24,000 nt of DNA, taken from assembly GCF_014284495.1 (NCBI RefSeq), contig NZ_WJBE01000001.1. One strand, 5' to 3'. This DNA is from Acetobacterium malicum. GTDB taxonomy: Bacteria > Bacillota > Clostridia > Eubacteriales > Eubacteriaceae. A program made the position numbers and the translations under genes. This document shows, piece by piece, positions 1 to 20,446 of the stretch (positions are counted from its first letter, which is position 1; each line of letters begins with the position of its first letter). Under the pieces are notes generated by a model. That model was not told the origin of the DNA, did no database searches, and saw only the letters and a list, made by a program, of their open reading frames with translations.

Positions 1-1424
1 AGGCCGAATTGGCAAAAGAGAGTAAGCTGCTTGAAACAACTCTGGTTTCGGTGGGCGATGGGGTCATATCCTGTGATAAGGATGGTTATGTTTTATTTAT
101 AAATCGGGTAGCAGAGGACTTAACCGGCTGGACAAAAATTGATGCCTTAGGAAAACCCATTGAAACCGTATTCAATATCATCAATGATCTTAATCGGGAA
201 AAGGCTGGAAATATTGTCGCGGAAATCATTAAAACTAAAGAAATTAGAGAACTCGATAATCATACCCTGCTAATTGCCAGAGATGGTAGTGAACGAGCCA
301 TCGAGGACAGCGCTGCCCCAATAATTGAAGAAAATGGCGATGTGCTGGGTGTCGTTCTGGTGTTTCGGGATTATACCGAGAAAAAGCAGAAACTGGATCA
401 GATCGAGTATTTAAGCTATCATGATCAGCTCACCGGCCTTTACAATCGACGCTTCTATGAAGAAGAACTACGACGGATTGATACGCCAGAGAATTTACCC
501 TTGTCTTTAATTATGGGCGATGTCAACGGTCTTAAACTGGTAAATGACAGTTTTGGACATGTAATGGGAGACCAATTATTAAAAAAAGCCGCTGCGACGA
601 TTACCAGAGCCTGCCGCGCGGAAGATGTGGTGGCAAGATTGGGCGGCGATGAATTTGTTGTGCTGCTACCAAAAACAAATCAAATTGAAGCGGAAGAAGT
701 CATTGCACGCATTGAAGAATTGGCAAAAAGTGAAATAGTTGGAACCGTGGAACTTTCTATTTCATTCGGTTTTGAAACGAAGGTGGATAAGGAACAAGAC
801 ATCCAGCTGATTTTTAAAAGAGCAGAAGACTATATGTATCGTCGCAAACTGACGGAAAGTCTGGGAATGCGGAATAAAACTGTCGGTATGGTAATTGAAA
901 CCTTATTTGATAAATACCAGAAGGAAATGTTTCATTCGGAGCGGGTCAGTCGCCTGTCGGCTGAGGTTGGAAATAAAATCGGACTCAATACCAAAGATTC
1001 CCATGATCTCCAAACCGCCGGATTAATGCATGATATTGGCAAGATTGGGATTGCTGAGGGGATTCTCGACAAGTCAGAAAAACTGAGCGAACAGGATTGG
1101 CTGGAAATACGTCGTCACCCTGAAATTGGATACCGCATATTAAGCTCCGCCAACGAATTTGCTGAAATTGCCGATCATATCCTGGAACACCATGAGCGTT
1201 GGGACGGCAGCGGTTATCCCAATGGACTAAAAGGCGAAGAAATCTCGTTGGAAGCCAGGATTATTGCCATCGCTGATGCCTATGATGCAATGACCAGAAT
1301 GCGTTTGCATATGGATGATCTCACAGTTGAAGAAGCCATTGAAGAAATCAATCGCTGCTCCGGTACGCAGTTCGATCCCGAGATTGCCAGAGTTTTTATT
1401 GATATGATAAAAGACGAAAATTGA
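1..1424 (+). CDS. PAS-GGDEF-HD-GYP c-di-GMP turnover protein (5' end probably outside the window)
   Basis: The frame is open to the window edge, with no in-frame stop upstream of the TTG at 9. PAS-like N-terminus (VSVGDGVISCDKDGYVLFINRVAEDLTGW). GGDEF domain with intact RLGGDEF (GGDEF codons nt 642-656) and an RxxD I-site (RAED, nt 615-626) five residues upstream. C-terminal HD-GYP domain (HDIGKIG ... HHERWDGSGYP). Stop TGA at 1422-1424. Confidence 0.88.
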   Translation, partial: AELAKESKLLETTLVSVGDGVISCDKDGYVLFINRVAEDLTGWTKIDALGKPIETVFNIINDLNREKAGNIVAEIIKTKEIRELDNHTLLIARDGSERAIEDSAAPIIEENGDVLGVVLVFRDYTEKKQKLDQIEYLSYHDQLTGLYNRRFYEEELRRIDTPENLPLSLIMGDVNGLKLVNDSFGHVMGDQLLKKAAATITRACRAEDVVARLGGDEFVVLLPKTNQIEAEEVIARIEELAKSEIVGTVELSISFGFETKVDKEQDIQLIFKRAEDYMYRRKLTESLGMRNKTVGMVIETLFDKYQKEMFHSERVSRLSAEVGNKIGLNTKDSHDLQTAGLMHDIGKIGIAEGILDKSEKLSEQDWLEIRRHPEIGYRILSSANEFAEIADHILEHHERWDGSGYPNGLKGEEISLEARIIAIADAYDAMTRMRLHMDDLTVEEAIEEINRCSGTQFDPEIARVFIDMIKDEN

Positions 1425-3009: not shown

Positions 3010-3855
3010 TTATTTAAATCTCATCGTGACGGGTCCGACCCCGCCATCAATATCGATGCGATGGGGAGCAGATTTTGATCCGGTTCCGGATTCAGAAATG
3101 CTCTCGCCATTGATGGTGATGGGGCCGACACCCTGGTCAGCGGTAATAAAATAATCATTAACATTGGCGTCGATGTCGAGACTGGTCTGACCGACGCCAC
3201 AGTCGATTTCCAGATCACCGGTGACGATCCCCTGAATGTTAACGAGTCCAACGCCGCCTTTGATTTCAAAATCATTGAGTTGAACATCAGAAAAATGAAC
3301 AGCGCCCGCGCCACCGTTGAGTTTACCGGAATTTGCCTGAAGCTGATCGGCCTCAACTTCACCGGCGCCTTGTTTGATAGTCAGTTCATCAGTGATAATT
3401 CGTGACAATTCTGCTCGTCCGGCACCAATCTCAAGTTCCAATTTTTTTAAGTGGGTGTCATTTGGAATTGTAACCACAAGATTTGGCCCATGATCCTTAC
3501 CGATCAGATTGGGAATAATATTGGTGGGCCCGTCATCTTCTATGACAAGCTTGCCATCATCAAGGGTAGCAGTTAAACTTGCGGGGAGATCAGACCCCTC
3601 AACCCGAAAAGCATTCCCGGTTTTAAGCGTGATACTGCCGGTATCGAAATTAATAAAAACAGCTTCCAGCTCACCGGCAAAATCCTGCTGAAAGGTGTCT
3701 CCGTCCGGTTCACTGATCTGGGTCCTGTTTTCTATCAGACCAAATCCCCTCATGATGGCGACGCCACCATTGACAATACTGGCGATGATTCCCAATGCCA
3801 GGACCAGACCGAAGGCAATAGCCAGGTATTTAATCCAACTCTGATTGGTATTCAT
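3010..3855 (-). CDS. DUF4097 / LiaG-like membrane-anchored beta-strand-repeat protein
   Basis: One N-terminal TM helix (WIKYLAIAFGLVLALGIIASIV), followed by repeated G-x-G-containing beta-strand units (GAGRAEL, GAGEVEA, GGAGAVHF, GGVGLVNI, CGVGQTSL, QGVGPITI, GGVGPVTM). The start ATG (3855-3853) overlaps the upstream stop in an ATGA arrangement. Confidence 0.65.
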   Translation of the reverse strand: MNTNQSWIKYLAIAFGLVLALGIIASIVNGGVAIMRGFGLIENRTQISEPDGDTFQQDFAGELEAVFINFDTGSITLKTGNAFRVEGSDLPASLTATLDDGKLVIEDDGPTNIIPNLIGKDHGPNLVVTIPNDTHLKKLELEIGAGRAELSRIITDELTIKQGAGEVEADQLQANSGKLNGGAGAVHFSDVQLNDFEIKGGVGLVNIQGIVTGDLEIDCGVGQTSLDIDANVNDYFITADQGVGPITINGESISESGTGSKSAPHRIDIDGGVGPVTMRFK

Positions 3856-4529
3856 TTGACTTCGGTACCCCCAAAGATATTGGTGCTGTTGATATAAATG
3901 GTTGGCGGATTTTCACCCAGTGGTCGATTGGTTTTATTTGATGCCCCACCAAAAATGGGCGTGGTCGACAATTCGACCCGGACATTGCTGGGAACCATCA
4001 TATCAATGCCGCCAAAGACAGCTGTGGCTGAGATATAAATATCTTCACTGATAACGGCCTGGCGCAAATCAAGAGAAATACTTCCAAAAACCGCTGTCAG
4101 ATTGGCACCGTTAAATTGTTCGCCGGGAAAGTTAATTTCCTGGCCGCCAAAAATCGCTGAATAATCAGGAAGACCATCCTTAGTCATGCCTTGAATCAGC
4201 TTGGCATTTTTACTAAGTCGATCCTTGAACATAATGCTTAAGCCAATGGCAATAATTATGATGGGAAAGATCAGGTCGCCCAACAGCTCCCCATTAAAAT
4301 AGCCCTGGGCAGAAATAAACAATAATACCCCAATCCCTAATCCGATGGTGTTCCAAAGCTGTACGCCGTTTTGCACCATGCTAATGGCACAGGGAACAAT
4401 AATGAACAAGGTCCACCAGCCAGCGAAAAATAATTCAAAATTCCACAGACCAAAAACATTTCCGGCAAAACCAAGGCCGATAGCGACCAATAAAAGCCCC
4501 CAAAGTAAGTTACCAACTTGATTTCTCAT
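3852..4529 (-). CDS. LiaF-like cell-wall-active-antibiotic response membrane protein
   Basis: N-terminal multi-TM region plus a C-terminal LiaF-type repeat region (IFGGQEINF...AVFGSISLDL...AVFGGIDMMVP...PIFGGASN...IFGGTEV). I chose the start ATG at 4529 (MRNQVGN) because AAGGAGAG lies 4 nt upstream. The TTG at 4550 in the ORF track lacks an RBS. Confidence 0.7.
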   Translation of the reverse strand: MRNQVGNLLWGLLLVAIGLGFAGNVFGLWNFELFFAGWWTLFIIVPCAISMVQNGVQLWNTIGLGIGVLLFISAQGYFNGELLGDLIFPIIIIAIGLSIMFKDRLSKNAKLIQGMTKDGLPDYSAIFGGQEINFPGEQFNGANLTAVFGSISLDLRQAVISEDIYISATAVFGGIDMMVPSNVRVELSTTPIFGGASNKTNRPLGENPPTIYINSTNIFGGTEVK

Positions 4530-4558
4530 TTTTCTCTCCTTATTTCGCAATTTAGTTT

Positions 4559-5590: not shown

Positions 5591-7921
5591 ATGAAACATG
5601 AAAAGAGTTTGTTAGCAAAGATCCTGATGACAGTTGTTTTACCAGTAGCATTAATATTTGGTGCAATTGCAGCTATTGCAATGGTGGTGACAAGTCAGAA
5701 TGTTGATCAGTTTGCAAAGATTCAAAACAATTTGTTGCTGATTTATGTAATCGGTTTAGCTGTTATTGTTGGTGTAATTGTATTGGGAATGAAAGATACC
5801 TCAAACAGAATAACCAGCCTGGCAGAGGCCGCTAAACGGATGGCGGATGGGGACATTGAAGTTGGGTTAAGATCTGATAAGCCTCAGGATCAGTTGGGAG
5901 AAATTGCTTATGCGCTTTCATTACTGGCGGAAAATAATAAGACGCAGTCGGAAATTGCAAAAAAACTGGCAGATGGAGATCTGTCAGAAACGATCAGCCC
6001 ACTATCGGATAAAGACCGGCTGGGAAGTAATTTAGTTGCGGCTCAAAAGTCGATGAAAAAACTCCTCGATTATTTTGTTATGATGCCGGAATTGGTCGAG
6101 AAAAAAGTGTATTATGACAAAAGTGTAGAAAATGACTTAGCCGGTGATTATAAAAAAGCTCTTGGGCAGGCAAATCAGGCCATGGCGACAGTCACCACAA
6201 ATATGGAATATTATTTAGCAATTCTGGATGCTTTACCGTACCGGGTGACCACCACCGATAAAGACATGAAAATGGTTTTTGTCAACAAAATTCTTGAAGA
6301 TCTGATGAAAATGACCGGCACGGCCGAAAAACGGGAAGACATTCGCGGTATCGATTGTCATACCTGTAATCTGGAAATGTGTCATACTGAGAACTGCGGC
6401 GTGACAATGCTAAATGGCAATGGGGATCAATTGAATGAACTTGGCTATGCCGAATATCGCTTTGAATTCCGCGAACGATATTATCGGATGGATACGATGA
6501 ACCTCATCGACAAAAATGGTGAAAAGATCGGTTATGTAGAAGTATCCCACGACACAACACCGGTAATGAGTGTAAATAATTATCGCAGCAATGCGGTAGT
6601 CCGACTGGCGGACAACCTGCATCGCTTATCGGAGGGAAATCTTGATCTTGATTTACATGTCGATGAACCAGGCCAGTATACTAATGAAGTGTATGCGCAA
6701 TTTAAAGCGATTGGAGATAGCTTGACGGAGGTGAAAAATACCATTGGCAATCTGATTGATGATGCAAGTATGCTGACCCATGCGGCAATTGATGGTCAGC
6801 TCGATGCCCGAGCGGATGAAACCAAATTCGCTGGCTCATGGCTGGAACTGATCAGTGGAATGAATGGTATTCTTGGTGAAATAGCGAAGCCGCTCCAAGA
6901 GGTCACGGATGTTATGGATGAGATTTCACAAGGGAATCTGAAAGTTACCGTAAACGGCTCTTATCGCGGGAGTTTTGATGAATTAAAACAGTCGGTTAAC
7001 TCAATGGGGAGCGGATTCAAAAAAATAGTAGGAGAAATTTCCACAGTAACCGAAGAAATCGGCAATGGAAATCTCAATTTGGAAAATGTCAGTTCCTTTG
7101 GTGGCGATTTCAATACGATTTCCGATGCTCTTAATACCATTATTGGAACGCTGAACTCGCTGTTGGGTGATATCAATCATGCTGCTGAACAGGTTAATGC
7201 CGGGGCCAATCAGGTCTCCGACAGCAGCCAGGCCCTGGCCCAGGGGTCGACTGAACAGGCCAGTTCGATTCAGGAACTGACTGCTTCGATTACCGAAATA
7301 GCTGACCAGACCAAGAATAACGCCGTCAACGCAAACAAGGCCAGAGAACTGGCTACCGATGTTATGGGTAACGCGGACAAAGGAAACCATCAGATGACCG
7401 AGATGCAGCAGTCGATGGTGGAAATCAACAAGTCATCGGAAGACATTTCCAAGATTATCAAGGTCATTGATGACATTGCCTTCCAGACCAATATTCTGGC
7501 GCTTAATGCGGCCGTTGAAGCCGCCCGGGCGGGACAGCATGGTAAAGGTTTTGCCGTGGTGGCAGAAGAAGTCCGCACCCTGGCCGCCCGTAGTGCTGAT
7601 GCTGCCAAGGAAACGACCGGCTTAATTGAAGGCTCCATCAGTAAGGTCGCCGAGGGGACAAAAATTGCCGATGAAACCGCCAGTGCCCTGGATGAAATTG
7701 TTGGCGGCATCGCCAAAGTTAACGATTTAATTGGCAACATCGCCACGGCATCCAATGAACAGGCGACCGGCATTGCTCAGATTAACATGGGTGTTGAGCA
7801 GGTTGCCCAGGTCGTTCAACAGAATTCGGCAACTGCTGAAGAAAGTGCAGCCGCCAGTGAAGAACTCTCCGGTCAATCGATCCTGTTAAAACAGATGATC
7901 GACCAGTTCCAATTGAGATAA
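5591..7921 (+). CDS. Methyl-accepting chemotaxis protein: TM hairpin, HAMP, Cys-rich PAS-like domain, poly-HAMP, MA domain
   Basis: RBS GAAGGAG upstream. Two TM helices are separated by only ~13 residues. HAMP-like segments follow ([43 protein letters not shown]). The canonical MCP signalling hairpin is present ([40 protein letters not shown]). Confidence 0.93.
7073..7921 (+). repeat. Near-identical 3' tract shared with the second MCP gene (copy A)
   Basis: Aligns without gaps to 9681-10529 at a constant offset of 2608. Positions 7271-7581 equal 9879-10189 with no difference over 311 bp. The flanks differ only by scattered, mostly synonymous substitutions. Confidence 0.9.
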
Positions 7922-8066: not shown

Positions 8067-8219
8067 ACTATCAATAATTAAATTATCCTGGCTGAATACC
8101 CTGGCTGTGAAGAGTAACAGCAACGAAATTTATATCGTTTAGTGGTATAATCCTTCCAAGAAGAGTGGTGACGAAAGAAAGAATTGCTTGATAAATAATT
8201 TAATCAAATGGAGGAAAGA

Positions 8220-10529
8220 ATGGAGCATGAAAAAAGTTTGCTGTCAAAAATCCTAATGACAGTTGTCCTACCGACCGTCCTGATTTTTTGCGTGACAGCA
8301 GGTATTTCAATGGTTGTCGTCAGTCAAAATTTCGACCAGTTTGGCGGTATCCAAAATAGTGTGTTGCTGATTTATGCCATCGGTATAGCGTTAATGGTTG
8401 GGGTAAGTGTAATCGGTGTAAAGGGAATATCGGATCGTTTAACTGGCCTGGCTGAGGCTGCTAACCGCCTGGCTGATGGAGAGGTTGAACTTGGTTTAAA
8501 AGTTGATAAACCTCAGGATCAGTTGGGGGAAGTTGCTTATGCACTTTCAGGTATTGCCAAGAGCATGAGATTACAGTCAGAAGCGGCTGGTAAACTGGCA
8601 AAGGGTGATCTGTCAGCAGCAATCATTCCGTCATCGGATAAGGATGTGGTTGGCAACAGTCTGCTAGAAGTCCAGTCATCCATTAAGATGATGAGTGATT
8701 ACCTGATACAACTACCCGAACTCGTTAAAAAGGAAGTGGATCTGAATAAAGTACAAGAAACTGAAATGATTGGCGATTATCAAAAAGGGATCGAACACGT
8801 CAATCAGGCGATCCAGATAGTAGCCGACAAACGCGATTTCTTCCAGGCGATTCTTGATGCGATGCCATACCGAATTACCGTTGTGGATAATGATTTGAAG
8901 TGGACATTTATTAATAAGACCCTTCAGGATCTGAGAATAGCAACCGGGCGCGAGGGCAGTCGCGAATCACTTTATGGTGATGACTGTTGTAAATCAAATC
9001 TGGACATGTGTAAAAATGAAGATTGTGGTGTCAAGGCGTACCGAAAAACAGGCCGAATTGAATTTCCGTTTGCATATCGTGGCGGATATTATCGTATGGA
9101 TACAACGCCGATTATTGACAAACAAGGTCAGACCATTGGCTATGTGGAAACTTCGTTTAACACAAGTGCAACGATGAGCGTCAACAATTATTCAGAAGTG
9201 GAAATTAATCGGCTGGCTGATAATTTAAGACGTTTATCAGCAGGAAATTTGGACTTTGACATGGATATTCAAGAACCAGGTGAATTTACTGGCGAGGTAT
9301 ATGAACAGTTTAAAGCGATTGAAACTAATCTGCGAGAAGTAAAAAATTCCATTGACAGCCTCATTGGCGACGCCATCATTCTGACAACGGCAGCAATGCA
9401 GGGAGACCTGGATGTTCGGGCCGATGAAACCAAATTCAGCGGTTCCTGGCAGGAGCTGATCAGCGGCATGAATGGCATTCTTAGCGTTATGGCAAAACCG
9501 ATGGAAGAGGTCGCGAATGTGATGGATGCCATTGCCAACGGCAATCTTGATGTGATGGTCGAAGGTTATTATCAGGGCAGCTTTGATGTCTTGAAACAGG
9601 CTGTCAATGAAATGGGAATTAACTTTAAAACTATTGTGACAGAGATTTCGACGGTTACCAGAGAAATAAGCAATGGGAACCTCAATTTGGAAAATGTCAG
9701 TTCCTTTGGTGGCGATTTCAACGCGATTTCTGACGCGCTCAATACTATTATTGCGACATTAAACTCGTTGTTGGGTGATATTAATCATGCCGCTGAGCAG
9801 GTTAATGCCGGAGCCAATCAGGTCTCTGACAGCAGCCAGGCCCTGGCCCAGGGTTCAACTGAACAGGCCAGTTCGATCCAGGAACTGACTGCTTCGATTA
9901 CCGAAATAGCTGACCAGACCAAGAATAACGCCGTCAACGCAAACAAGGCCAGAGAACTGGCTACCGATGTTATGGGTAACGCGGACAAAGGAAACCATCA
10001 GATGACCGAGATGCAGCAGTCGATGGTGGAAATCAACAAGTCATCGGAAGACATTTCCAAGATTATCAAGGTCATTGATGACATTGCCTTCCAGACCAAT
10101 ATTCTGGCGCTTAATGCGGCCGTTGAAGCCGCCCGGGCGGGACAGCATGGTAAAGGTTTTGCCGTGGTGGCAGAAGAAGTCCGCACCCTTGCCGCTCGAA
10201 GTGCTGATGCAGCCAAAGAAACGACCGGCTTAATTGAAGGCTCCATCAGTAAGGTCGCCGAGGGGACAAAAATTGCCGATGAAACCGCCAGTGCCCTGGA
10301 CGAAATTGTTGGCGGAATCGCCAAGGTTAATGATTTAATCGGCAACATCGCTACCGCATCCAACGAACAGGCGACCGGCATTGCTCAGATTAATATGGGT
10401 GTTGAGCAGGTTGCCCAGGTCGTTCAGCAGAATTCGGCAACCGCCGAAGAAAGTGCTGCCGCCAGTGAAGAACTCTCCGGCCAATCGATCCTGTTAAAAC
10501 AGATGATTGACCAGTTCCAGCTGAGATAA
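8220..10529 (+). CDS. Methyl-accepting chemotaxis protein, paralog of 5591-7921
   Basis: Same architecture as the first MCP. I chose the start ATG at 8220 (MEHEKSLL, aligning with MKHEKSLL of paralog 1) because GGAGG at 8210-8214 lies 5 nt upstream. The last ~280 aa are identical to paralog 1 apart from two substitutions (T/A and G/A) just inside the tract, whereas the sensor half is far more diverged by eye. Confidence 0.93.
9681..10529 (+). repeat. Near-identical 3' tract shared with the first MCP gene (copy B)
   Basis: Counterpart of 7073-7921; see that feature. Confidence 0.9.
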
Positions 10530-12004: not shown

Positions 12005-12171
12005 TTGGCCTAATCTGCGTAAATTTTAGTAAGTTGGATATGAATAAAGTAAAGGGTATTAAGATTAATAAGGATTACAAATGAAAATCCATGGCTGGCA
12101 TACACAAAGCTGCGCAGCTTGAAGAATTTGGACTGATATTAACTGGAAGTGAAAAGAACAGGAGAAAGAAA

Positions 12172-13842
12172 ATGAAAATTAAATTTTTAGGAGCGGCACT
12201 ATCCGTAACTGGTTCCTGCCATCTGGTGACGACCGATCACTGTAAATTCCTCCTGGACTGCGGTTTGTTTCAAGGCAGTGAAGCCCTGGAAGAATTAAAC
12301 TATCAGGAGTTTGATTTTAATCCGGCAGAAATTGATTTTATAATTTTGAGTCATGCTCATGTGGATCATTGTGGGCGCATTCCCTTACTTGTCAAGCAGG
12401 GGTTCAAAGGAAAGATTTATTGCACCGGGGCAACCGCTGAAATAGCCGACATCATGCTTCAGGACAGCGGCAATATTCACGAAATGGATGCGAAATGGAT
12501 CAACAAACGCACCATCCGTTCTGGAAAGCGGCAGATTGCTCCACTTTACACCCAGGCAGATGCTGCCCGTTGTAGCCAATATTTCTTTCCGGTGGCATAT
12601 GGACAAACTTTTGAGATCAATCCTTGGATCAAGATCCGGCTCAATGAAGCAGGTCATATACTGGGGGCAGCAATCATTGAAATTTGGGCTGAAGATGACG
12701 GAAAAACCACCAAGCTTGTTTATTCAGGGGATATTGGGGCTGCCAATCAGCGGATGCTCAATAATCCGACTCTGATTGCAGCGGCTGATTATCTGATTAT
12801 GGAAACGACCTATGGGGATCGTGTCCATGAAACCCAACAGGAAAGTGGGAAACGTTTTCTGGATATCATTTTTAAAACCGTTGCACGGGGTGGAACTGTG
12901 GTGGCACCTGCCTTTGCTTTGGGACGAACCCAGGATCTGATCCATGAGCTGGAGCTGTTTTATGATAACCATGAACTACATCAGAATCAGCTTGATAAAG
13001 TCAATGTTTATGTTGACAGTCCGCTGGCTACCGATGCCACCGAAATTTTTCGGAAAAATGCCCACTATTTTAACGATAAAATAAAGGCGCGAATCAAAAA
13101 AGGTGAGGAGCTTTTTTATTTCAGAAATCTTTATTTTACCAAAAGCATCGATCAATCCAAGGCGTTAAACGATGATCCGGCACCTAAGATCATCATTTCA
13201 TCCAGTGGCATGGCTGATGCCGGCCGGGTTCAACATCATCTCAAGCACTATCTCTGGAAACCAAAATCGAGCATTGTTTTTGCTGGCTATCAGGCAGAGG
13301 GAACCACTGGACGGGCAATTACCAGCGGCGAAAAATATGTCCGGATCCTCCGTGAACGGATTCGTGTGAATGCGGAAATCTATTTTCTTGAGGGGTTCTC
13401 TGCTCATGCCGATAAAAATGATCTGCTCAAATGGTTGTCCGGGTTTAAAGAAAAGCCAAAGAAAATCTTTCTGGTACATGGGGAAGAAGAGCCAAAAAAA
13501 ATATTTGCGGAAACAGTCAAAAATATTCTCGGGTATGATTGTACAATCGTGGAAGATGTATCCGAATATGTTCTTGGAGAAGCTGAAGAAGTTGTTTGTG
13601 ATGGCATAAAAAGTCGGATTGATACAAAAAAACAACTGCTTCAAATAAAAACCAATTTACAAGATATGTCTGATGAGCTGGACTCGCTTTTGTCTGAGCC
13701 AGGTATGAAAACAAAAGAAATACTTACAAAAGAGAAAGTTGAAGATATTTCCGATCTTTCAAGTGACCTTGAAAAGATCCTGACGAAACTTAAATCAGTG
13801 GTTGGCGAAAAAGATTTGCAACAAGAAGAGAAAACGGATTGA
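12172..13842 (+). CDS. MBL-fold beta-CASP family hydrolase (CPSF/RNase J-like RNA-metabolising nuclease) with an acidic coiled-coil tail
   Basis: RBS AGGAGA before the ATG at 12172 (MKIKFLGA). Metallo-beta-lactamase motif HAHVDHCG. Beta-CASP/RMMBL-type C-terminal motifs (GFSAHAD, LVHGE). The last ~90 aa are low-complexity and Lys/Glu/Asp/Leu-rich. Confidence 0.8.
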   Translation: MKIKFLGAALSVTGSCHLVTTDHCKFLLDCGLFQGSEALEELNYQEFDFNPAEIDFIILSHAHVDHCGRIPLLVKQGFKGKIYCTGATAEIADIMLQDSGNIHEMDAKWINKRTIRSGKRQIAPLYTQADAARCSQYFFPVAYGQTFEINPWIKIRLNEAGHILGAAIIEIWAEDDGKTTKLVYSGDIGAANQRMLNNPTLIAAADYLIMETTYGDRVHETQQESGKRFLDIIFKTVARGGTVVAPAFALGRTQDLIHELELFYDNHELHQNQLDKVNVYVDSPLATDATEIFRKNAHYFNDKIKARIKKGEELFYFRNLYFTKSIDQSKALNDDPAPKIIISSSGMADAGRVQHHLKHYLWKPKSSIVFAGYQAEGTTGRAITSGEKYVRILRERIRVNAEIYFLEGFSAHADKNDLLKWLSGFKEKPKKIFLVHGEEEPKKIFAETVKNILGYDCTIVEDVSEYVLGEAEEVVCDGIKSRIDTKKQLLQIKTNLQDMSDELDSLLSEPGMKTKEILTKEKVEDISDLSSDLEKILTKLKSVVGEKDLQQEEKTD

Positions 13843-13899: not shown

Positions 13900-14703
13900 A
13901 TGATGAACAAAAAGTTTCAGGAAGCTGATGACAAATTAAAGGCTCAAATTCTTGACCAGATACCAGCCCCGGTCATGGCAGTTAATAAAGAACTGATAGT
14001 GATCTATATGAATGAAGCTGGCAAAAAATTAATAAAAAGAAGTGCAGAGGATATTATTGGAATTGCCTGCAAAGATATAATCTGCACCGATCAGTGTGGA
14101 ACTGACGATTGTGCCATGCTAAAAGCGATGAAGTCAGGGAAGACCTATGCTTCCCGAACCGAAGCAACCTTAGGCGGGCAAACGATTCCTTTAGAGTTTT
14201 CAGCAGTACCTCTGGTTGATGATAGCGGAGAGATCATTGGTGGCCTCGAATTTGTCTTGGACATTACAGAGCGAGTTCTATATGAGAATCGTCTCAAAGA
14301 ACAAAACCATACAATCCGAGAAATGTCCACACCGACAATTAAATTATGGGAAGGTGTTATGGTATTGCCGGTTGTGGGTGTTGTTGACTCAATGAGAGCT
14401 CAGCATATGATGGAAAGCATGCTGACAAAAATCGCTGAAACGTATGCAAAAGTAATTATTTTGGATATTCACGGTGTTGCAGCCGTGGATACGGCCGTAG
14501 CCAATCATTTGATTAAAATAACAAAAGCAACTAAATTGATGGGGTGTGATTGTATTTTGTCGGGAATTTCACCTGCCGTGGCGCAAACAATCATCCAATT
14601 AGGAATTGATATGGAAGCGATCAACACCCGGGCAACACTCAGTGATGCTTTGACTGAAGCATTTTTAATGTTAAATCTGGAAGTGAATAAGAAAAAACAG
14701 TGA
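13900..14703 (+). CDS. RsbR-like stressosome scaffold/sensor: Cys-rich PAS N-domain plus STAS C-domain
   Basis: RBS AGGAGGG before the ATG at 13900. N-terminal PAS-like fold with C-x4-C-x3-C-x4-C (nt 14068-14112). The C-terminal STAS domain has RsbR hallmarks (MSTPTIKLWEGVMVLPVVGVVDSMRAQ, LDIHGVAAVDT, SGISPAVAQTIIQLGID). Thr is present at the positions I align to the RsbR phospho-acceptors (VDT and AQT). Confidence 0.85.
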   Translation: MMNKKFQEADDKLKAQILDQIPAPVMAVNKELIVIYMNEAGKKLIKRSAEDIIGIACKDIICTDQCGTDDCAMLKAMKSGKTYASRTEATLGGQTIPLEFSAVPLVDDSGEIIGGLEFVLDITERVLYENRLKEQNHTIREMSTPTIKLWEGVMVLPVVGVVDSMRAQHMMESMLTKIAETYAKVIILDIHGVAAVDTAVANHLIKITKATKLMGCDCILSGISPAVAQTIIQLGIDMEAINTRATLSDALTEAFLMLNLEVNKKKQ

Positions 14704-14736
14704 AATAATATTTTTGATGGGAATAGGTTGAAAGTA

Positions 14737-15093
14737 ATGGGAGAAGACTATAATACATCCGTAACCGTGATAAAAAATAACCTGATTGTGGCATTTCCAG
14801 CAGAAATGACGGATTCGTGTATTCAAAACATCGAAAAAACAATTATTGATAAAACCTATCAGAAGAATATTCGGGGAGTACTTCTTAATTTTTCAATGGT
14901 GACTGTTATGGATACATATACATACCAGGCTTTTGAAAACATTACAAGGGTATTTTCATTGATGGGGATTCAGACAATCTGGGTAGGTTTGAATCCCGGG
15001 GTAGTTTTTGGTTTGATTGACTTGGACGTTGCGATTAATATAAGAATAAAAATGGCAATTAATCTTGAGATTGGTTTAACGTTGCTCAATTAG
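14737..15093 (+). CDS. RsbS-like single-domain STAS protein
   Basis: A ~118 aa STAS-only protein immediately after the RsbR-like gene. MVTVMDTYTYQAF aligns with the DxxS/T phospho-site loop of RsbS/SpoIIAA-type proteins. Start uncertain: ATG at 14737 or TTG at 14728. Confidence 0.75.
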   Translation: MGEDYNTSVTVIKNNLIVAFPAEMTDSCIQNIEKTIIDKTYQKNIRGVLLNFSMVTVMDTYTYQAFENITRVFSLMGIQTIWVGLNPGVVFGLIDLDVAINIRIKMAINLEIGLTLLN

Positions 15094-15117
15094 AGTAAAT
15101 GGTAAAACTGGTAAAAG

Positions 15118-15594
15118 ATGATGAAAATATCTGATGTATGTTTAACAAAAGAAATTAGCGAAAGAGTCAGGGTCAGAGAAACAAAAAAAATAGATCTTGT
15201 TTTTAGCCACGATAATGAGAACGTGGTTTATTCTGTTCGTAGTATTGCTAAAAAAGCTGGATTTCGTTTAACGGATGAGGTGTTAATAGCCGTAGCTGCT
15301 TCGGAACTATCGACAAATATTTTACGGTATGCTGGAACAGGCATAATTGAAGTAAGTATTGTTACCGATGAAGTCAGCCAGGCCAATGGGATTGAACTGT
15401 TTGCAAGCGATAAAGGACCGGGGATCAATGATATTGAACAGGCATTAACGGAAAACTACAGCTCACAGACAAATAGTTTGGGACAAGGTCTTCCGAGTGT
15501 GCAGCGAATCATGGACGAGTTCTATATCGAATCGGTTTCAGGCAAAGGAACGCGAGTGCTGACACGTAAATGGGTGGGATATGGAGAAAATTGA
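15118..15594 (+). CDS. RsbT-like GHKL serine/threonine kinase (anti-sigma regulatory factor family)
   Basis: N-box ASELSTNILRYAG, G1 box SDKGPGI, G2-like SLGQGLPSVQRIMDEF, and the typical small size (158 aa). Confidence 0.85.
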   Translation: MMKISDVCLTKEISERVRVRETKKIDLVFSHDNENVVYSVRSIAKKAGFRLTDEVLIAVAASELSTNILRYAGTGIIEVSIVTDEVSQANGIELFASDKGPGINDIEQALTENYSSQTNSLGQGLPSVQRIMDEFYIESVSGKGTRVLTRKWVGYGEN

Positions 15595-16168
15595 ATATGC
15601 AATGATACTCCGAGCGCTGCTGTGGGATGTTTCAGAATGCGGTGATCTCGGATATATTAAAGAATATGATAATAAGTGCTTTGTCTGTTTGATTGACATT
15701 CTTGGTCATGGCAAAATGGCAAGAAGTATTGCAGTTAATGCAGAAGAATATCTTGAAGCCAATTATCAACGCAACCTCATTGACGTCATGAACGGTCTCC
15801 ATAAACATTTATATGGTAGTAGAGGCGGAGTTGCCCTAATGTGTCGCCTGGATATACCAGCTGGGAAACTTCAGTATACAGGAATTGGTAATGTCACTGG
15901 AAGAGTAATCGGTTCCAATCAACATCGGATGCTTTCAAAAGATGGAATCGTGGGATTTGGAAGGATTAGTCCAATTATTCGAGAATGTGATTTTTCTGAT
16001 CGCGATCTCCTGATTCTCTATTCTGATGGTATTAAAGAGCACTTCAATTTGCTTGACCATTTGGCATTATTTACTGGCGAGACGGAATCAATCGCAAGTG
16101 GTGTTCTTAAAGAATTTGGCAAAAAAACTGATGATGCTTGCTGTATAGCGTTAAAGTATATTAAATAA
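15581..16168 (+). CDS. RsbX-like PP2C/SpoIIE-family phosphatase
   Basis: The metal-binding motifs CGD...DILGHG and ILYSDGI match small RsbX-type PP2C phosphatases. Size is 195 aa. It overlaps the RsbT-like gene by 14 nt. Confidence 0.8.
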   Translation: MEKIEYAMILRALLWDVSECGDLGYIKEYDNKCFVCLIDILGHGKMARSIAVNAEEYLEANYQRNLIDVMNGLHKHLYGSRGGVALMCRLDIPAGKLQYTGIGNVTGRVIGSNQHRMLSKDGIVGFGRISPIIRECDFSDRDLLILYSDGIKEHFNLLDHLALFTGETESIASGVLKEFGKKTDDACCIALKYIK

Positions 16169-16189
16169 AGGCGGAATCGAGGTAGAGCA

Positions 16190-19100
16190 ATGATCGAATT
16201 GGGTCATACACGGGTCGATAGTAATATTTCTTTGATCGAAGCAAGAAAAAAAGCAAGACATATTGCTTTAAAATTAGGATGTTCCGAAATTAAGGCAGCC
16301 CGAATTGAAGCAGTTTTATCGGAAATGATTCGGCAGTTGCTTAATGACACAAATATGGTTGACTGTATTATTTCAGTCATAAAAAACCAGGATAAAGAAG
16401 GCATTAATATCGCATATGATAACCTGGAGGTACCGTTTAGCTTGAATTGTGCTGAAAAATATGTGAATCCGTTTGAAATTCACGAAAAGCCGGATGGAAA
16501 ATACTTGGTAAATGTCTTTTTTCCTTTCATAACAGTCGAGCCAGATTTCTGTGAGAGCCTCGTCGAAGAAATTCGTATTGAAATTGAGTCACCGACAAGG
16601 GCAGAGTTACTCAAAGAAATTGAGGAAAAGAACAAAGAATTGGCGAGTAGCAGAGAGTTTATCGAATCAGTTCTGGAAAATTTACAGGCTGCAGTTTATG
16701 CAAAAGATTTAAATGGGAAATATACATATATTAACAAACAATGGGAAACGGTAACGGGGATTGATCGAGATGCCTGCATCGGAAAAACGGCGACGGACAT
16801 ATTCAGACCAGATCTTGGTGAAGCGTATGAAGAAAATGATCTCAATGTTATTAAATCAAAGAAAATTCAGATAATCGAAGAACACTCTAATCGGGAAGAA
16901 AACACACAAACCTATTTATCCACAAAAGTACCGATGAAACAGAATGATGATATTATCGGACTTTGTAGTATTTCTACAGATATCACTCAACGAAAAATTA
17001 TGGAAGAAGAGCTTTATAAAGCAAAAAAAACCGCTGAAGAGGCGGCCAAGTCCAAGTCCGATTTTTTGGCAAATATGAGCCATGAAATAAGAACCCCCAT
17101 GAATGCCATACTCGGAATGAGTTATTTAATGGAAAAAACTGATCTGTCCGAAAAACAGAAAGACTATCTCGGAAAAATAAGGTTGTCGGGGCAGCATTTG
17201 TTGGGTGTTATTAATGATATCCTGGACTTTTCAAAAATTGAGGCAGGGAAACTGGATATTGAATGCATTGATTTTAAATTATATGAGGTTTTGGATAATT
17301 TGTCCAATTGTATTAGTGAAAAATGTATGTCAAAAGGTTTGGAACTTGTCTTTGATGTTAATTCGAATGTTCCTAACGAACTATGTGGCGATCCGCTGCG
17401 AATTGGACAAATCCTGATTAACTATGTCAACAACGCCATAAAATTCACGGAACAAGGTGAAATTATTGTCAGAATAAGGAAAGAAGAAACGTTAGCCCAA
17501 GGATTTTTGTTGAAATTTGAAGTTCAGGATACCGGAATCGGCTTGACAACAGATCAGAAAGCTAAGTTATTCCAGTCTTCTCAACAAGCTGATACCTCGA
17601 CCACACGAAAATACGGTGGAACGGGATTGGGACTGGCTATTTCAAAAGATCTGGCGGAATTAATGGGTGGCGAAGTTGGTGTGGAATCAGAATATGGTAA
17701 AGGCAGTAATTTTTGGTTTACGACCCATTTTCGTGTCTCCGGCAAAACGGAGCAATCAATTATCTCAAATGAAGGGTTGGAAAATTTACGTGTATTGGTA
17801 GTCGATGATAATAATCAGGCCCGAATGATTCTATCGGAGATGTTAAATTCCATGAGAATTCGGGTGGATGAAGCAGGGTCGGGTGAGCGTGCCATCGAAA
17901 TGGTTCAAATGGAAGATTTGCGCCAAGATCCCTACGAAATTGTCTTCGTTGATATGCAGATGCCAAATTTAAATGGCATTCAAACTGTTGAACGATTAAG
18001 TCACATCAAACTGAAAAGCCCACCCAAATATGTGATGGTCACTGCTTTTGGAAGAGAAGAAGTATTTTGTAAAGCAGAACGGGCGGGATTTGAACTGGTT
18101 ATGGTCAAACCGGTTAATCTTTGGGTACTGTACGAAACGATGATTAGAATTCTTGAAAAAAACCGACTGAATGAGACCGTCGAAAAAAAAGAAGTTGAGA
18201 CGACCGGTCAAAGGAAAATTTTACAGACAATTTCCGGGGCTAGAATTTTGTTGGTGGAAGATAATGAGTTGAACCAGATGGTTGCACTTGAACTACTTAA
18301 AGAGGCCGGACTGATTGTAGATGTGGCAGAAAATGGTCGGATTGCCGTGGAAATGGTGGCTGAAAATGAATATGATCTGGTTCTGATGGATATGCAGATG
18401 CCGGTACTGGATGGGCTTGAAGCGACCAGGCGGATTCGTTCAGATAGTCGATTTGCGGAACTGCGGATAATTGCGATGACTGCCAATGCAATGGCAAATG
18501 ATCGCGAACGTTGTATCGCTGCCGGAATGAATGACCATTTGCCTAAACCGATTGAACCGAATCATTTGTTTGAAATACTAGCGCATTGGATACCATCAAG
18601 AACAAATATTAATGTTTCAGATGACTGTATCGGTGATACTGATGATGCGGTTTTTCCAGAAGCGGAATTAAACATCAGAATCAGTGGTCTGGACGTTGAA
18701 TTGGGTCTACGGCGGGTTCTCGGTAAGAAAAAACCGTATCTAAATTTGCTGAGAAAATTTATGGCCGGACAACCGAGTTTCATAACAGACCTGGATCAGG
18801 CAGTCAGCAATGGCGATTATACCACCGCTGAGAGGCTTGTCCATACATTAAAAGGGGTATCTGGGAATATTGGGGCAATCGAAATAAGAGAAACGGCAAC
18901 GATTCTTGAGACCGCAATCCGTGAACAACCAAGTAAGGATACATTAAGACCGCTCATTAAAAATCTGGCTACGCAGTTAAAAAAGCTGACTGAATCATTG
19001 CAAACGGCGTTGCCAAAAGAAAAAAAAGCTGTTGACGACAGCGATACTGCTTCCACGAAGGTTGAACTAATACGTTTTTTAGAAGAACTTATGCCGGGGA

Positions 19101-19276
19101 TTCAAACACGGAAACCAAAAAAATGTCTCGATGTTCTTGAAACTTATCGTAAATTTTTATGGCCAGATGAAAGCGAAATCGAAGTCGCTGAGATCTATCG
19201 ACTTGTTTCCAAATATCGATATAAGGAAGCCGCTGAACGCGTAAATTCCTTATTAATCAAATTAAGTGAGGTTTGA
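16190..19276 (+). CDS. Hybrid sensor histidine kinase: degenerate RsbT-like N-domain, coiled coil, PAS, HisKA, HATPase_c, REC, REC, Hpt
   Basis: RBS GAGGTAGAG upstream. H-box [14 protein letters not shown] with His298 at nt 17081-17083. N/G boxes ([27 protein letters not shown]). Two receivers retain the acidic pocket, phospho-Asp, Thr and Lys (VVDDN...FVDMQMP...VTAF...VKP; LVEDN...LMDMQMP...MTAN...PKP). Hpt motif [12 protein letters not shown]. Confidence 0.92.
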
Positions 19277-19278
19277 TT

Positions 19279-20394
19279 ATGAAGAAATTGTCAGAGTGTA
19301 ATATTCTAATCGTCGATGATACAGAAATGAATATTGACATATTGGTTGGTGCGCTGGGAGACGACTATGAACTGTCAGTGGCAATGGATGGGGAAGCTGC
19401 TCTCGAAATGATGGAAATGGAGCTTCCCGATTTAATCTTACTGGACATCATGATGCCAGGATTGAGTGGCTATGAAGTTTGTGAAAAACTTAAAAATAAT
19501 CCCAGAGCGAAAGAAATCCCGATTATTTTCCTGACTGCGATGACTGACATCGAAAGTAAAACAAAAGGGTTTGAAGCTGGGGCCGTCGATTATATTACCA
19601 AACCATTTGAAATACTGGAAGTCAAAGCACGGGTACAGACCCATCTGTACATCACGATTGCAAAAAAAGAGTTAGCTCTGCAGAATGAAATACTTGAGCA
19701 ACGGGTTATAGAACGAACGGAAGAATTGTGCCTGACTCAGGAAATTACCATTGAAGCGCTAGCCTCACTGGCTGAATATCGAGATCCGGATACGGGGGGA
19801 CATATTTATCGTACCAAAAATTATGTAAAAATTCTGGCTGAAAAACTAAGTTCCGTTGAAAAATATAAAAATATTCTAAATGAGGAAGTCATCAAAATAT
19901 TTTACAAGTCGGCACCACTCCATGACATTGGCAAAATCGGTATTCGCGACGAAATTCTTCTAAAACCAGGTAAGTTGACCGTTAAGGAATTTGAAGAAAT
20001 GAAAAAACATACTTTGATTGGTTATAATGCTCTTCGAATTGCGTCATTAAAGCTTGGTGAGAATTCATTTTTGAAACATGCCATGGAGATTTCAAAAAGT
20101 CATCAGGAAAAATGGAATGGGACCGGCTATCCGGATGGTTTGTCTGGCGATGATATCCCCATAGCTGGGAGAATCATGGCGATTGCGGATGTGTATGATG
20201 CACTCATCAGTAAGCGGATTTATAAACCGCCATTTACGCACCGGCAGGCGGTCGTGATTATTAAAGAAGGCCGGGGTATTCATTTTGATCCGCTGATGGT
20301 TGATGCTTTTGAAGATGTTAATGAAGAATTCCGGCAAATTGCGATTAAATATGCCGATTGTGATGAGGAACGAGTGACTTTAAATGAAGTGTAG
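19279..20394 (+). CDS. Response regulator with HD-GYP c-di-GMP phosphodiesterase output (RpfG-like)
   Basis: REC domain (ILIVDDTEMN...LILLDIMMPG...LTAM...TKP) followed by HD-GYP (HDIGKIGI...HQEKWNGTGYPDGL). The ATG at 19279 starts 2 nt after the kinase stop, with AAGTGAGG as RBS. Confidence 0.9.
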   Translation: MKKLSECNILIVDDTEMNIDILVGALGDDYELSVAMDGEAALEMMEMELPDLILLDIMMPGLSGYEVCEKLKNNPRAKEIPIIFLTAMTDIESKTKGFEAGAVDYITKPFEILEVKARVQTHLYITIAKKELALQNEILEQRVIERTEELCLTQEITIEALASLAEYRDPDTGGHIYRTKNYVKILAEKLSSVEKYKNILNEEVIKIFYKSAPLHDIGKIGIRDEILLKPGKLTVKEFEEMKKHTLIGYNALRIASLKLGENSFLKHAMEISKSHQEKWNGTGYPDGLSGDDIPIAGRIMAIADVYDALISKRIYKPPFTHRQAVVIIKEGRGIHFDPLMVDAFEDVNEEFRQIAIKYADCDEERVTLNEV

Positions 20395-20399
20395 TGTTG

Positions 20400-20446
20400 C
20401 TATCGAAAAGACCTGCCGGCTTGACGCCGACAGGTCTTTTCGATAG
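20400..20446 (+). terminator. Very stable hairpin at the operon end (terminator-like, no clean U-tract)
   Basis: CTATCGAAAAGACCTG / CAGGTCTTTTCGATAG perfect 16-bp stem, plus an inner CGGC/GCCG pairing. It starts 6 nt after the stop codon. The downstream sequence is AATGAG, not a T-run. Confidence 0.5.

Follow-up and report, generated by a model that had tools for sequence, protein, structure and literature searches.

By what route might a stressosome pass on its signal when its locus encodes none of the proteins RsbU, RsbV, RsbW or SigB? The question is raised by a 24,000-nucleotide (nt) stretch of DNA from Acetobacterium malicum (NCBI RefSeq assembly GCF_014284495.1, contig NZ_WJBE01000001.1), here called the window and the reference for all coordinates given without a locus number, in which six co-directional open reading frames (ORFs), called on the + strand, fill positions 13900-20394. 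In this order they are predicted to encode RsbR-, RsbS-, RsbT- and RsbX-like proteins (collectively RSTX), a hybrid histidine kinase (HK) and a response regulator (RR) with a REC and an HD-GYP domain. Stressosomes are widespread, but an understanding of how their signal leaves is confined to systems in which RsbT meets an RsbU_N domain, those of Bacillus, Listeria and Moorella. An earlier reading of this DNA from its letters alone (the original prediction) had described the path from RsbT to outputs of the present kind as poorly understood, in agreement with Heinz et al. 2022; for loci of the type known from Vibrio, published work has neither recognized a receiver domain nor shown an interaction between RsbT and the kinase (PMC9237108). 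We interpret the locus, with a probability of about 0.7, as an Acetobacterium operon of Vibrio-type architecture that joins a complete stressosome module to a hybrid-kinase/REC-HD-GYP output through the signalling chain inferred below. Its most informative feature is one that the original prediction did not contain, an RsbT-like domain at the N-terminus of the kinase, which would serve as the coupler between stressosome and output.

In the proposed chain, RsbR and RsbS would form a core that holds RsbT, and a signal, probably redox, metal or gas, would be sensed at the Cys-rich PAS pocket of RsbR. RsbT would phosphorylate T63 of RsbS and T198 and T230 of RsbR and leave the core, which RsbX would reset. 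Free RsbT would bind the RsbT-like pseudokinase domain and the linker of the dimeric kinase, its engagement would alter autophosphorylation of the kinase, and phosphate would travel by a four-step relay from H298 to a REC Asp, to H885 of the Hpt domain and to D58 of the response regulator, whose phosphorylated form would switch the HD-GYP domain and lower the level of cyclic di-GMP (c-di-GMP).

The six-gene cassette and its known relatives

The intergenic distances along the order R-S-T-X-HK-RR, computed with ATG starts, are 33, 24, -14, 21 and 2 nt, in full agreement with the original prediction, and its domain identities for all six genes were borne out by Pfam. The rsbR-like gene (13900-14703, alternative start 13879; PAS_4 1.9e-17, STAS 3.7e-16), immediately upstream of which stands the Shine-Dalgarno sequence AGGAGG, is followed by the rsbS-like gene (14728 (TTG) or 14737 (ATG) to 15093; STAS 5e-8), the rsbT-like gene (15118-15594; HATPase_c_2 1e-8), the rsbX-like gene (15581-16168; SpoIIE/PP2C 3.5e-6), which overlaps rsbT by 14 nt, and the genes for the hybrid kinase (16190-19276; PAS, HisKA, HATPase_c, two REC domains and Hpt) and the response regulator (19273 (TTG) or 19279 (ATG) to 20394; REC 6e-27, HD_5 1e-26), all on the + strand. 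Six nt past the last gene begins a hairpin, an apparent intrinsic terminator (20401-20446, + strand; stem pairing, folding energy and terminator scan), with an outer stem of 16 perfect base pairs (20401-20416 with 20431-20446) plus an inner stem. Its folding free energy of -34.2 kcal/mol (z = -7.85), equalled in 0 of 200 shuffles, justifies the earlier description of it as very stable. The scan gave it as the sole + strand terminator-like site of the region, and it could terminate transcription in both directions, since an A-run and a T-run flank the stem. As the original prediction had held, the 24-kb window contains no genes for RsbU, RsbV, RsbW or SigB; nor was any further STAS, RsbT/W-like, PP2C or sigma ORF found in it, and no Rfam family matched anywhere in the window.

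On the novelty of the wiring, on the other hand, the original prediction went too far. The six-gene architecture is not new, since the rsbRSTX-VvD1-VvD2 locus of Vibrio vulnificus, with essentially the same layout, has already been described, found to be co-transcribed and mutated (PMC9237108, PMC10014275, PMC10436020); Vibrio-type loci are covered by Pane-Farre 2005, Jia 2016 (PMC4976288), Heinz 2022 (PMC9237108) and Cutugno 2023 (PMC10014275, PMC10436020). VvD1, with ~1060 residues, is a sensor kinase that contains a PAS domain, and VvD2 completes a two-component system that is 'most likely involved in c-di-GMP hydrolysis' (PMC10014275, PMC10436020, PMC9237108). The V. vulnificus stressosome and two-component modules have both been deleted and phenotyped, and are functionally linked (PMC10436020, PMC10014275). 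The loci of V. vulnificus and V. brasiliensis share with that of Acetobacterium the order of genes (RSTX, then a PAS sensor kinase, then a presumed c-di-GMP-hydrolysing regulator) and the absence of RsbU, RsbV, RsbW and SigB, which for Acetobacterium applies to the window. The linker and STAS domain of the Vibrio RsbR are highly similar to those of Acetobacterium (1e-46), and the Vibrio maerlii orthologue and the Thalassotalea kinases share the N-terminal RsbT-like domain of the Acetobacterium kinase. The Acetobacterium locus differs in its RsbR sensor, which is a Cys-rich PAS domain in place of the haem-globin of Vibrio; in its RsbS, which keeps a phosphorylatable Thr where the globin-type loci examined have I, L or G; in its kinase, which has two REC domains; in the HD-GYP signature of its regulator, which reads HQE..NG; and in its host, a strictly anaerobic Gram-positive acetogen. 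What the locus adds is therefore not a new architecture: the new point is that each of the related loci that could be judged has an RsbT-homologous pseudokinase domain at its junction.

Another clostridial acetogen, Moorella thermoacetica, likewise ties RSTX to c-di-GMP and not to a sigma factor in its MtR-MtS-MtT-MtX-MtG locus, according to the account of Quin et al. 2012 relayed in PMC4976288 and PMC12143880, and MtX is the best match of the Acetobacterium RsbX in the PDB (3ZT9, 2.6e-19 over the full length, as compared with 1e-3 for B. subtilis RsbX 3W40). The Moorella output is a single RsbU_N-GAF-GGDEF protein for c-di-GMP synthesis that is reached via RsbU_N (PMC12143880), whereas that of Acetobacterium would be a phosphorelay to a predicted c-di-GMP-degrading HD-GYP protein, entered via the RsbT-like pseudokinase domain and without RsbU_N. 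With B. subtilis and Listeria the Acetobacterium locus has in common the RsbR/S/T core, the phospho-acceptor positions and a reset phosphatase of the RsbX type and, as we assume, the logic by which freed RsbT acts on an N-terminal receiver that precedes a helical linker. It differs from them in the absence of RsbU, RsbV, RsbW and SigB, in the position of rsbX directly after rsbT, and in the fold of the receiver, which would be alpha/beta and GHKL-like as opposed to the four-helix bundle of RsbU_N.

An RsbT-like domain at the entry to the kinase

Residues 1 to ~155-160 of the kinase match no family in Pfam or NCBIfam, permissive thresholds included, and within residues 1-160 none of 33 family members has a Pfam match even at E<=1. 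A word-indexed homologue search with the N-terminus alone also returned nothing; the family surfaced through a search with the full-length kinase, which supplied the 33 orthologues of alignment A1, and then through an exhaustive profile search. The module consists of the RsbT-like domain (residues 1-121, nt 16190-16552, + strand), delimited by an AlphaFold2 (AF2) model, Foldseek and hhalign, and of a helical linker (residues 122-159, nt 16553-16666, + strand), seen in the conservation and in the modelled helices, that leads into the PAS domain of the kinase. The AF2 model built on A1 (predicted local distance difference test score, pLDDT, 86; predicted template-modelling score, pTM, 0.75) has the topology beta-alpha-alpha-beta-beta-beta-beta, followed by two helices (residues 122-133 and 137-159). 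All of its top 19 Foldseek matches in the PDB are SpoIIAB, RsbW, UsfX or SiaB, GHKL kinases of the anti-sigma type (SpoIIAB E 1.8e-4; target-normalised template-modelling (TM) score for RsbW 0.66-0.80). Alignment by hhalign of A1 with 22 RsbT sequences from related loci gave a probability of 95.2% (E 2.9e-8, 114 columns), and the A1 profile weakly matches RsbT ORFs directly (E 3e-6 to 2e-3). On this evidence from profiles and modelled structure, the N-terminal domain is assigned an anti-sigma-type GHKL fold and a common origin with RsbT. An RsbU_N (PF08673) identity of the kinase N-terminus was considered and rejected, there being no Pfam match and the modelled fold being alpha/beta and not a four-helix bundle.

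In the alignment between the A1 and RsbT profiles, gaps stand opposite the G1-lid-G2 segment of RsbT, and the N-terminal domain has no conserved N-box Asn, the position being Gln or variable. Because the ATP lid is in the gap and the N-box Asn is without conservation, the domain is predicted to be an RsbT-derived pseudokinase that is catalytically dead. It resembles SpoIIAB, RsbW, UsfX and SiaB in fold, and a helix-1/helix-2 pattern (..R....LG....... RIe.a.SE..) is common to it and to RsbT, but unlike those four proteins it has no N-box Asn, G1, G2 or ATP lid and is in every case fused N-terminally to an output enzyme via a conserved helix. The Arg in register with the conserved helix-1 Arg of RsbT (R23; presumably the equivalent of SpoIIAB R20) is kept in the consensus ARKKxR. 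The best conserved stretch of the module is the linker, with the consensus PSReELm-EI--KN-EL, in which L140 and L151 are invariant and the conservation of E139, E143 and N148 reaches 90% or more (A1). K21 is the only other invariant position of the module; no invariant Ser or Thr stands out, and the sole near-invariant Ser of the wider family is S44, in an SE motif common to RsbT.

A search of 1.84 billion representative sequences with a HMMER profile of the domain yielded 872 clusters with E <= 1e-3, of which 317 reached E <= 1e-10; the match nearly always begins at residue 1. Among 76 members scanned for the output domains fused to it, HisKA was found in 65, REC in 34, Hpt in 21, PP2C in 4, class III cyclase in 3, and GGDEF and HD_5 in 1 each. 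The association with stressosome genes is strict, whichever way it is sampled. Sixteen of the loci retrieved with RsbR (L001-L005 and L007-L017) extend beyond rsbS and could be assessed, L006 ending inside that gene, and in 16/16 the first gene after RST(X) opens with the N-terminal domain (E 1e-57 to 6e-13). In the reverse direction, 7/7 family members whose flanking DNA was long enough, taken from all levels of the match list, adjoin R-S-T-X directly downstream, and an eighth follows a C-terminal fragment of RsbX on a short contig (L038). The Thalassotalea kinases of globin-type loci bear the domain, as does the V. maerlii hybrid kinase (E 4.5e-20), which is 51% identical to the Thalassotalea kinase. 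Fusions and synteny of this kind would be expected of a portable module that receives the signal of the stressosome, as RsbU_N does, and to RsbU_N the domain would be a structural alternative.

The order of the whole cassette is conserved as well. In a scan that took one genome per species, the locus was found in Acetobacterium metagenome-assembled genomes (MAGs) at 99% and 97% identity and in an A. woodii MAG at 88%. The order R-S-T-X-HK-RR(HD-GYP) is kept in Clostridia (L001-L005, L009 and L010, including Vallitalea, Velocimicrobium and Ca. Limiplasma), in the betaproteobacterium Niveibacterium terrae (L033) and in a metagenome contig (L036), and loci with a globin-type RsbR (L011, L012 and L017; Thalassotalea and an alphaproteobacterium) keep RSTX and the hybrid kinase. 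The junction between RSTX and output recurs in Firmicutes, Proteobacteria, Planctomycetia, Atribacteria and Nitrospinaceae, and this synteny across phyla gives strong support to a coupling between RSTX and the kinase/HD-GYP pair. That the two groups of genes might merely be unrelated neighbours is, in this light, exceedingly improbable. Promoter-like hexamers do occur inside the cassette, at a frequency no greater than that expected by chance; the gap between rsbX and the kinase gene is only 21 nt, no terminator precedes 20401 on the + strand, the junction is conserved across phyla together with a domain specific to it in both directions of sampling, and the six genes of V. vulnificus are co-transcribed, the rsbX-kinase junction included (PMC10436020). 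The reading as two unrelated adjacent units was rejected because of the synteny.

Some members of the family depart from the common layout. On contig L038 (1-2772) the RsbX fragment is followed by a protein in which the N-terminal domain is joined to PP2C (P0143) and by DUF6272 and SiaC genes, an arrangement suggestive of a stressosome module with a SiaABCD-like partner switch as its output. Two independent contigs (L032, 2555-4689; L040, 5001-6730) carry a gene for the N-terminal domain, an optional PAS and a class III cyclase directly after R-S-T-X, and then a hemerythrin gene. In L008 (6868-9118) and L015 (1613-3404) there is no rsbX between rsbT and the kinase gene; in L015 the N-terminal domain is divided between two ORFs, which points to a frameshift or an assembly error.

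How might the domain receive the signal? We tentatively favour, at a little under even odds, direct binding of released RsbT to the N-terminal domain in a pairing of like with like. Such a pairing is proposed because GHKL anti-sigma kinases dimerise, and it would parallel the ordering of the RsbU linker by RsbT through RsbU_N; direct binding is preferred because of this analogy and because, on PP2C phosphatases, this domain stands in the place of RsbU_N. Coupling through RsbU_N is established for B. subtilis RsbU, which RsbT activates by ordering its linker, and for Moorella MtG (PMC12143880). In most of the downstream proteins, those of Vibrio included, Heinz et al. 2022 report no detectable RsbU_N, nor could they detect an interaction between VvRsbT and VvD1 (PMC9237108).

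The undetected interaction is one of the points that lend themselves to the main rival view, that the kinase is a client of the stressosome whose pseudokinase domain docks on the STAS surface of RsbS and RsbR as RsbT does, with RsbT only phosphorylating the core and thereby ejecting or admitting the kinase, the activity of which would be set by its bound or free state. The domain is a homologue of RsbT, the defining partner of which is the STAS core, and the Arg in register with the helix-1 Arg of RsbT (R23) is kept. We nevertheless consider this arrangement unlikely, as the ATP-lid segment is deleted from the domain. In structures of SpoIIAB with SpoIIAA, a lid of this type forms much of the contact with the STAS partner, whose phospho-acceptor needs to reach the ATP. 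Moreover, the core has few sites to offer, and a dimeric kinase of ~1000 residues docked there would contend with RsbT for them, and the occurrence of the same domain on PP2C, in the position that it has in RsbU, fits binding of RsbT more simply.

Less probable still is that RsbT phosphorylates the kinase transiently on Ser or Thr, the N-terminal domain being a substrate or docking site and not a stable partner. Heinz et al. proposed this for Vibrio (PMC9237108), Moorella RsbT phosphorylates the downstream diguanylate cyclase according to the summary of Quin et al. 2012 in PMC4976288, and the kinase site of RsbT is intact in Acetobacterium. The lack of an outstanding invariant Ser or Thr among the conserved positions of the domain (K21, L140 and L151 invariant, S44 nearly so) speaks against it, and the kinase activity of B. 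subtilis RsbT is reportedly not needed for the activation of RsbU, a finding of 1998 attributed to Kang et al.

With the domain recognized, the question of coupling becomes a concrete problem of binding and mutagenesis, approachable through the N-terminal domain. It is perhaps an even bet that the RsbT-derived pseudokinase and its signalling helix are a general adaptor from stressosomes without RsbU to their outputs, those of the Vibrio type included, acting by mimicry of RsbT, either by pairing with released RsbT or by taking the sites of RsbT on the core. If so, the question left by Heinz et al. 2022 would be answered, and RsbU_N would have a second counterpart of unrelated structure, a module that has been joined to histidine kinases, PP2C phosphatases, nucleotide cyclases and c-di-GMP enzymes and is present in no fewer than 872 protein clusters. 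No earlier description of this RsbT-like pseudokinase module was found in the literature consulted.

The stressosome core and its sensor

A stressosome is by definition a pseudo-icosahedral complex of RsbR and RsbS, of ~1.5-1.8 MDa, that sequesters RsbT, and the high similarity of the Acetobacterium STAS domains to the solved Vibrio and Listeria cores favours the prediction that a core assembles here too. RsbR carries a PAS domain (nt 13942-14277, + strand) and, after a linker, a C-terminal STAS domain (nt 14347-14649, + strand). Residues 119-263, comprising the linker and STAS, match the RsbR of the V. vulnificus stressosome (7O0I_B) at 1e-46 and Listeria RsbR at 5e-27. T198 (in VDT) and T230 (in AQT), named as phospho-acceptors in the original prediction, align with the two phospho-Thr positions of Listeria RsbR, which we take to be T175 and T209. 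With a variable N-terminal sensor, a C-terminal STAS domain and two Thr phospho-acceptors, the protein has the make-up of an RsbR-type co-antagonist.

RsbS, the putative antagonist, is a single STAS domain that matches the RsbS proteins of B. subtilis (6JHK, 1.7e-10) and V. vulnificus (7O0I_a, 3.7e-10), and its acceptor in MDT, likewise foreseen, is T63 (T60 from the ATG at 14737), which aligns with the phospho-Ser (S59) of B. subtilis RsbS. Most related loci have S or T at the acceptor position; it is Ile, Leu or Ala in L011 (10418-10780), L012 (10418-10774), L017 (10483-10917), L004, L009 and L010, and Gly in the solved V. vulnificus RsbS. The loci that have lost the acceptor still keep RsbT and RsbX, and their switch may rely on the phosphorylation of RsbR only. 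RsbT matches the SpoIIAB family TIGR01925 (1.4e-12), and the alignment to SpoIIAB displays the N-box (N67), G1 (DKGPG at 98) and G2 (GQGLP at 122) that the original prediction had noted; as a small protein with these boxes that is encoded directly after rsbS (24-nt gap), it would be the GHKL Ser/Thr kinase of the module. In RsbX the metal-binding Asp motifs that had been read from its sequence (cGD, DilGHG, sDG and tDD) are kept in the alignments, as expected of a single-domain PP2C feedback phosphatase.

The sensor of RsbR had been called a Cys4-PAS domain. It does have four Cys, C57, C62, C66 and C71, in the motif C57-x4-C62-x3-C66-x-T68-x2-C71 (nt 14068-14112, + strand), but only C57, C66, T68 and C71 are invariant in the Cys-rich PAS subfamily (alignment A3), C62 being restricted to Acetobacterium. 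The residue before C66 is His in most members of the subfamily and Gln in Acetobacterium, where the extra Cys62 also occurs, an arrangement that looks like a possible swap of ligands. Judged from the alignment, the motif of the family is Cys3(+His/Cys) and not Cys4. A LOV domain was rejected as an identity for this PAS: C57 aligns with the photoactive Cys, but the domain lacks the NCRFLQ motif for flavin binding. A single-sequence structure model of the Cys-rich PAS domain reached a pLDDT of 51 and was unusable, and no globin-coupled haem sensor was found at the N-terminus of RsbR, which is PAS_4.

Tandem genes upstream on the + strand (5591-7921 and 8208-10529) encode chemoreceptors that are 72% identical, with nearly identical signalling domains. 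Both have a PAS-like region at residues ~207-322 that receives no Pfam call and is matched by the Cys-rich-PAS profile derived from RsbR (E 6.7e-10 and 1.3e-7); the three invariant Cys align in both, Thr68 in the first only. Chemotaxis and the stressosome seem to share one type of sensor, and through this common domain a single signal may govern chemotaxis as well as c-di-GMP in an acetogen. Elsewhere, MAGs of Desulfobulbales/Desulfocapsaceae, Myxococcota and Thermoguttaceae (L018-L031) encode large proteins in which the Cys-rich PAS unit (kCydlfkTpHCkTekCaC) is repeated 2-8 times in tandem; examples recognized by repeats of the Cys motif lie at 8519-12343 of L031 and 9254-12709 of L021 (positions given without strand).

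The output phosphorelay and the neighbouring genes

Beyond its N-terminal module the kinase has, all on the + strand, a PAS domain (nt 16667-16999), HisKA with H298 (17051-17248; Pfam 7.7e-21), HATPase_c (17387-17728; 1.6e-25), REC1 with D588 (17798-18154) and REC2 with D734 (18245-18580; 1.5e-48 for the two), and Hpt with H885 (18746-18985; 2.9e-12). The NCBIfam models for BarA, TorS and ArcB score 404-505 bits, which is below their equivalog cut-offs, so that the protein is classed by its sequence as a hybrid phosphorelay kinase of the BarA/TorS/ArcB type and not as an orthologue of any of the three. The output half of the locus resembles RpfC/RpfG of Xanthomonas, in which a HisKA-HATPase-REC-Hpt relay ends in a c-di-GMP phosphodiesterase of the REC-HD-GYP type. 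RpfC senses the diffusible signal factor (DSF) at the membrane, whereas the Acetobacterium kinase is cytoplasmic, has two REC domains and would have a stressosome module as its input.

In the response regulator a REC domain with D58 (nt 19303-19635, + strand) precedes the HD-GYP domain (nt 19720-20307, + strand), in which H217-D218 and G-Y-P 285-287 are present. The protein matches PA4781 (4R8Z, 1.2e-53) and PmGH (4MCW, 1.2e-41), with both of which its HD dyad (PLHDIGK) and GYP loop (GTGYP) align. Its signature reads SHQEKWNGTGYP, as compared with SHHERWDGRGFP in PA4781 and EHHERWDGTGYP in PmGH; that is, HQE..NG.GYP replaces the canonical HHE..DG.GYP, the second His having become Gln and the Asp Asn. 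The position of the third-metal Glu of PmGH is Asp, and the remaining ligands are conserved. The HD-GYP regulator that the original prediction placed at the end of its chain is thus present, with a non-canonical signature, and the hydrolysis of c-di-GMP that was ascribed to it is predicted, not assured.

The domain might instead not be a c-di-GMP phosphodiesterase at all, but a nucleotide-binding sensor or adaptor, or an enzyme for another cyclic dinucleotide such as 3'3'-cyclic GMP-AMP (cGAMP). The Gln at the second metal-binding His of HHE and the Asn for Asp point in this direction, as do the retention of the variant in Acetobacterium, L005 and L007 and the alignment of the domain with the cGAMP phosphodiesterase V-cGAP3 of V. 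cholerae (5Z7C, 2e-27). We regard this as improbable, since PmGH and PA4781 align with the domain at E 1e-42 to 1e-54 in all the other ligands (HD, the H of KKHT, the first His of HHE, the D of ADVYDAL and the GYP loop) and Gln is still able to ligate a metal. HHE is kept in the orthologues from the same cassette in L004, L009 and L010, which suggests that the change is tolerated within one function.

Several observations weigh against the operation of the chain as proposed, from RsbT to c-di-GMP. The similarity of fold on which the RsbT-like domain was recognized is moderate (Foldseek E 1.8e-4, query-normalised TM ~0.5), and BLASTP of the RsbT of the window against the domain was not significant, the homology being visible at the profile level only. 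That the interaction between VvRsbT and VvD1 was undetected (PMC9237108) argues against stable binding of RsbT. The loss of the RsbS acceptor in several related loci means that the logic of the switch may not be uniform, and catalysis by the regulator is uncertain because of the Gln at the second His of HHE and the Asn for Asp in DG.

Around the cassette, the nearest upstream gene (12091-13842, + strand) encodes a beta-CASP/RMMBL metallo-hydrolase, of an RNase J-like fold and with a long charged C-terminal tail. It stops 57 nt before rsbR, the terminator scan detected no terminator between them, and it is syntenic in three Acetobacterium loci and not in the others. On the strand opposite the cassette (3010-4550, - strand), a gene for a LiaF-like membrane protein (LiaF-TM, LiaF_C) and a DUF4097 'toastrack' gene overlap by 4 nt and look like a cell-envelope stress pair without relation to the cassette. 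Near the edge of the window (9-1424, + strand), which may have clipped its N-terminus, a PAS-GGDEF-HD_5 protein carries the second HD-GYP-type domain of this DNA.

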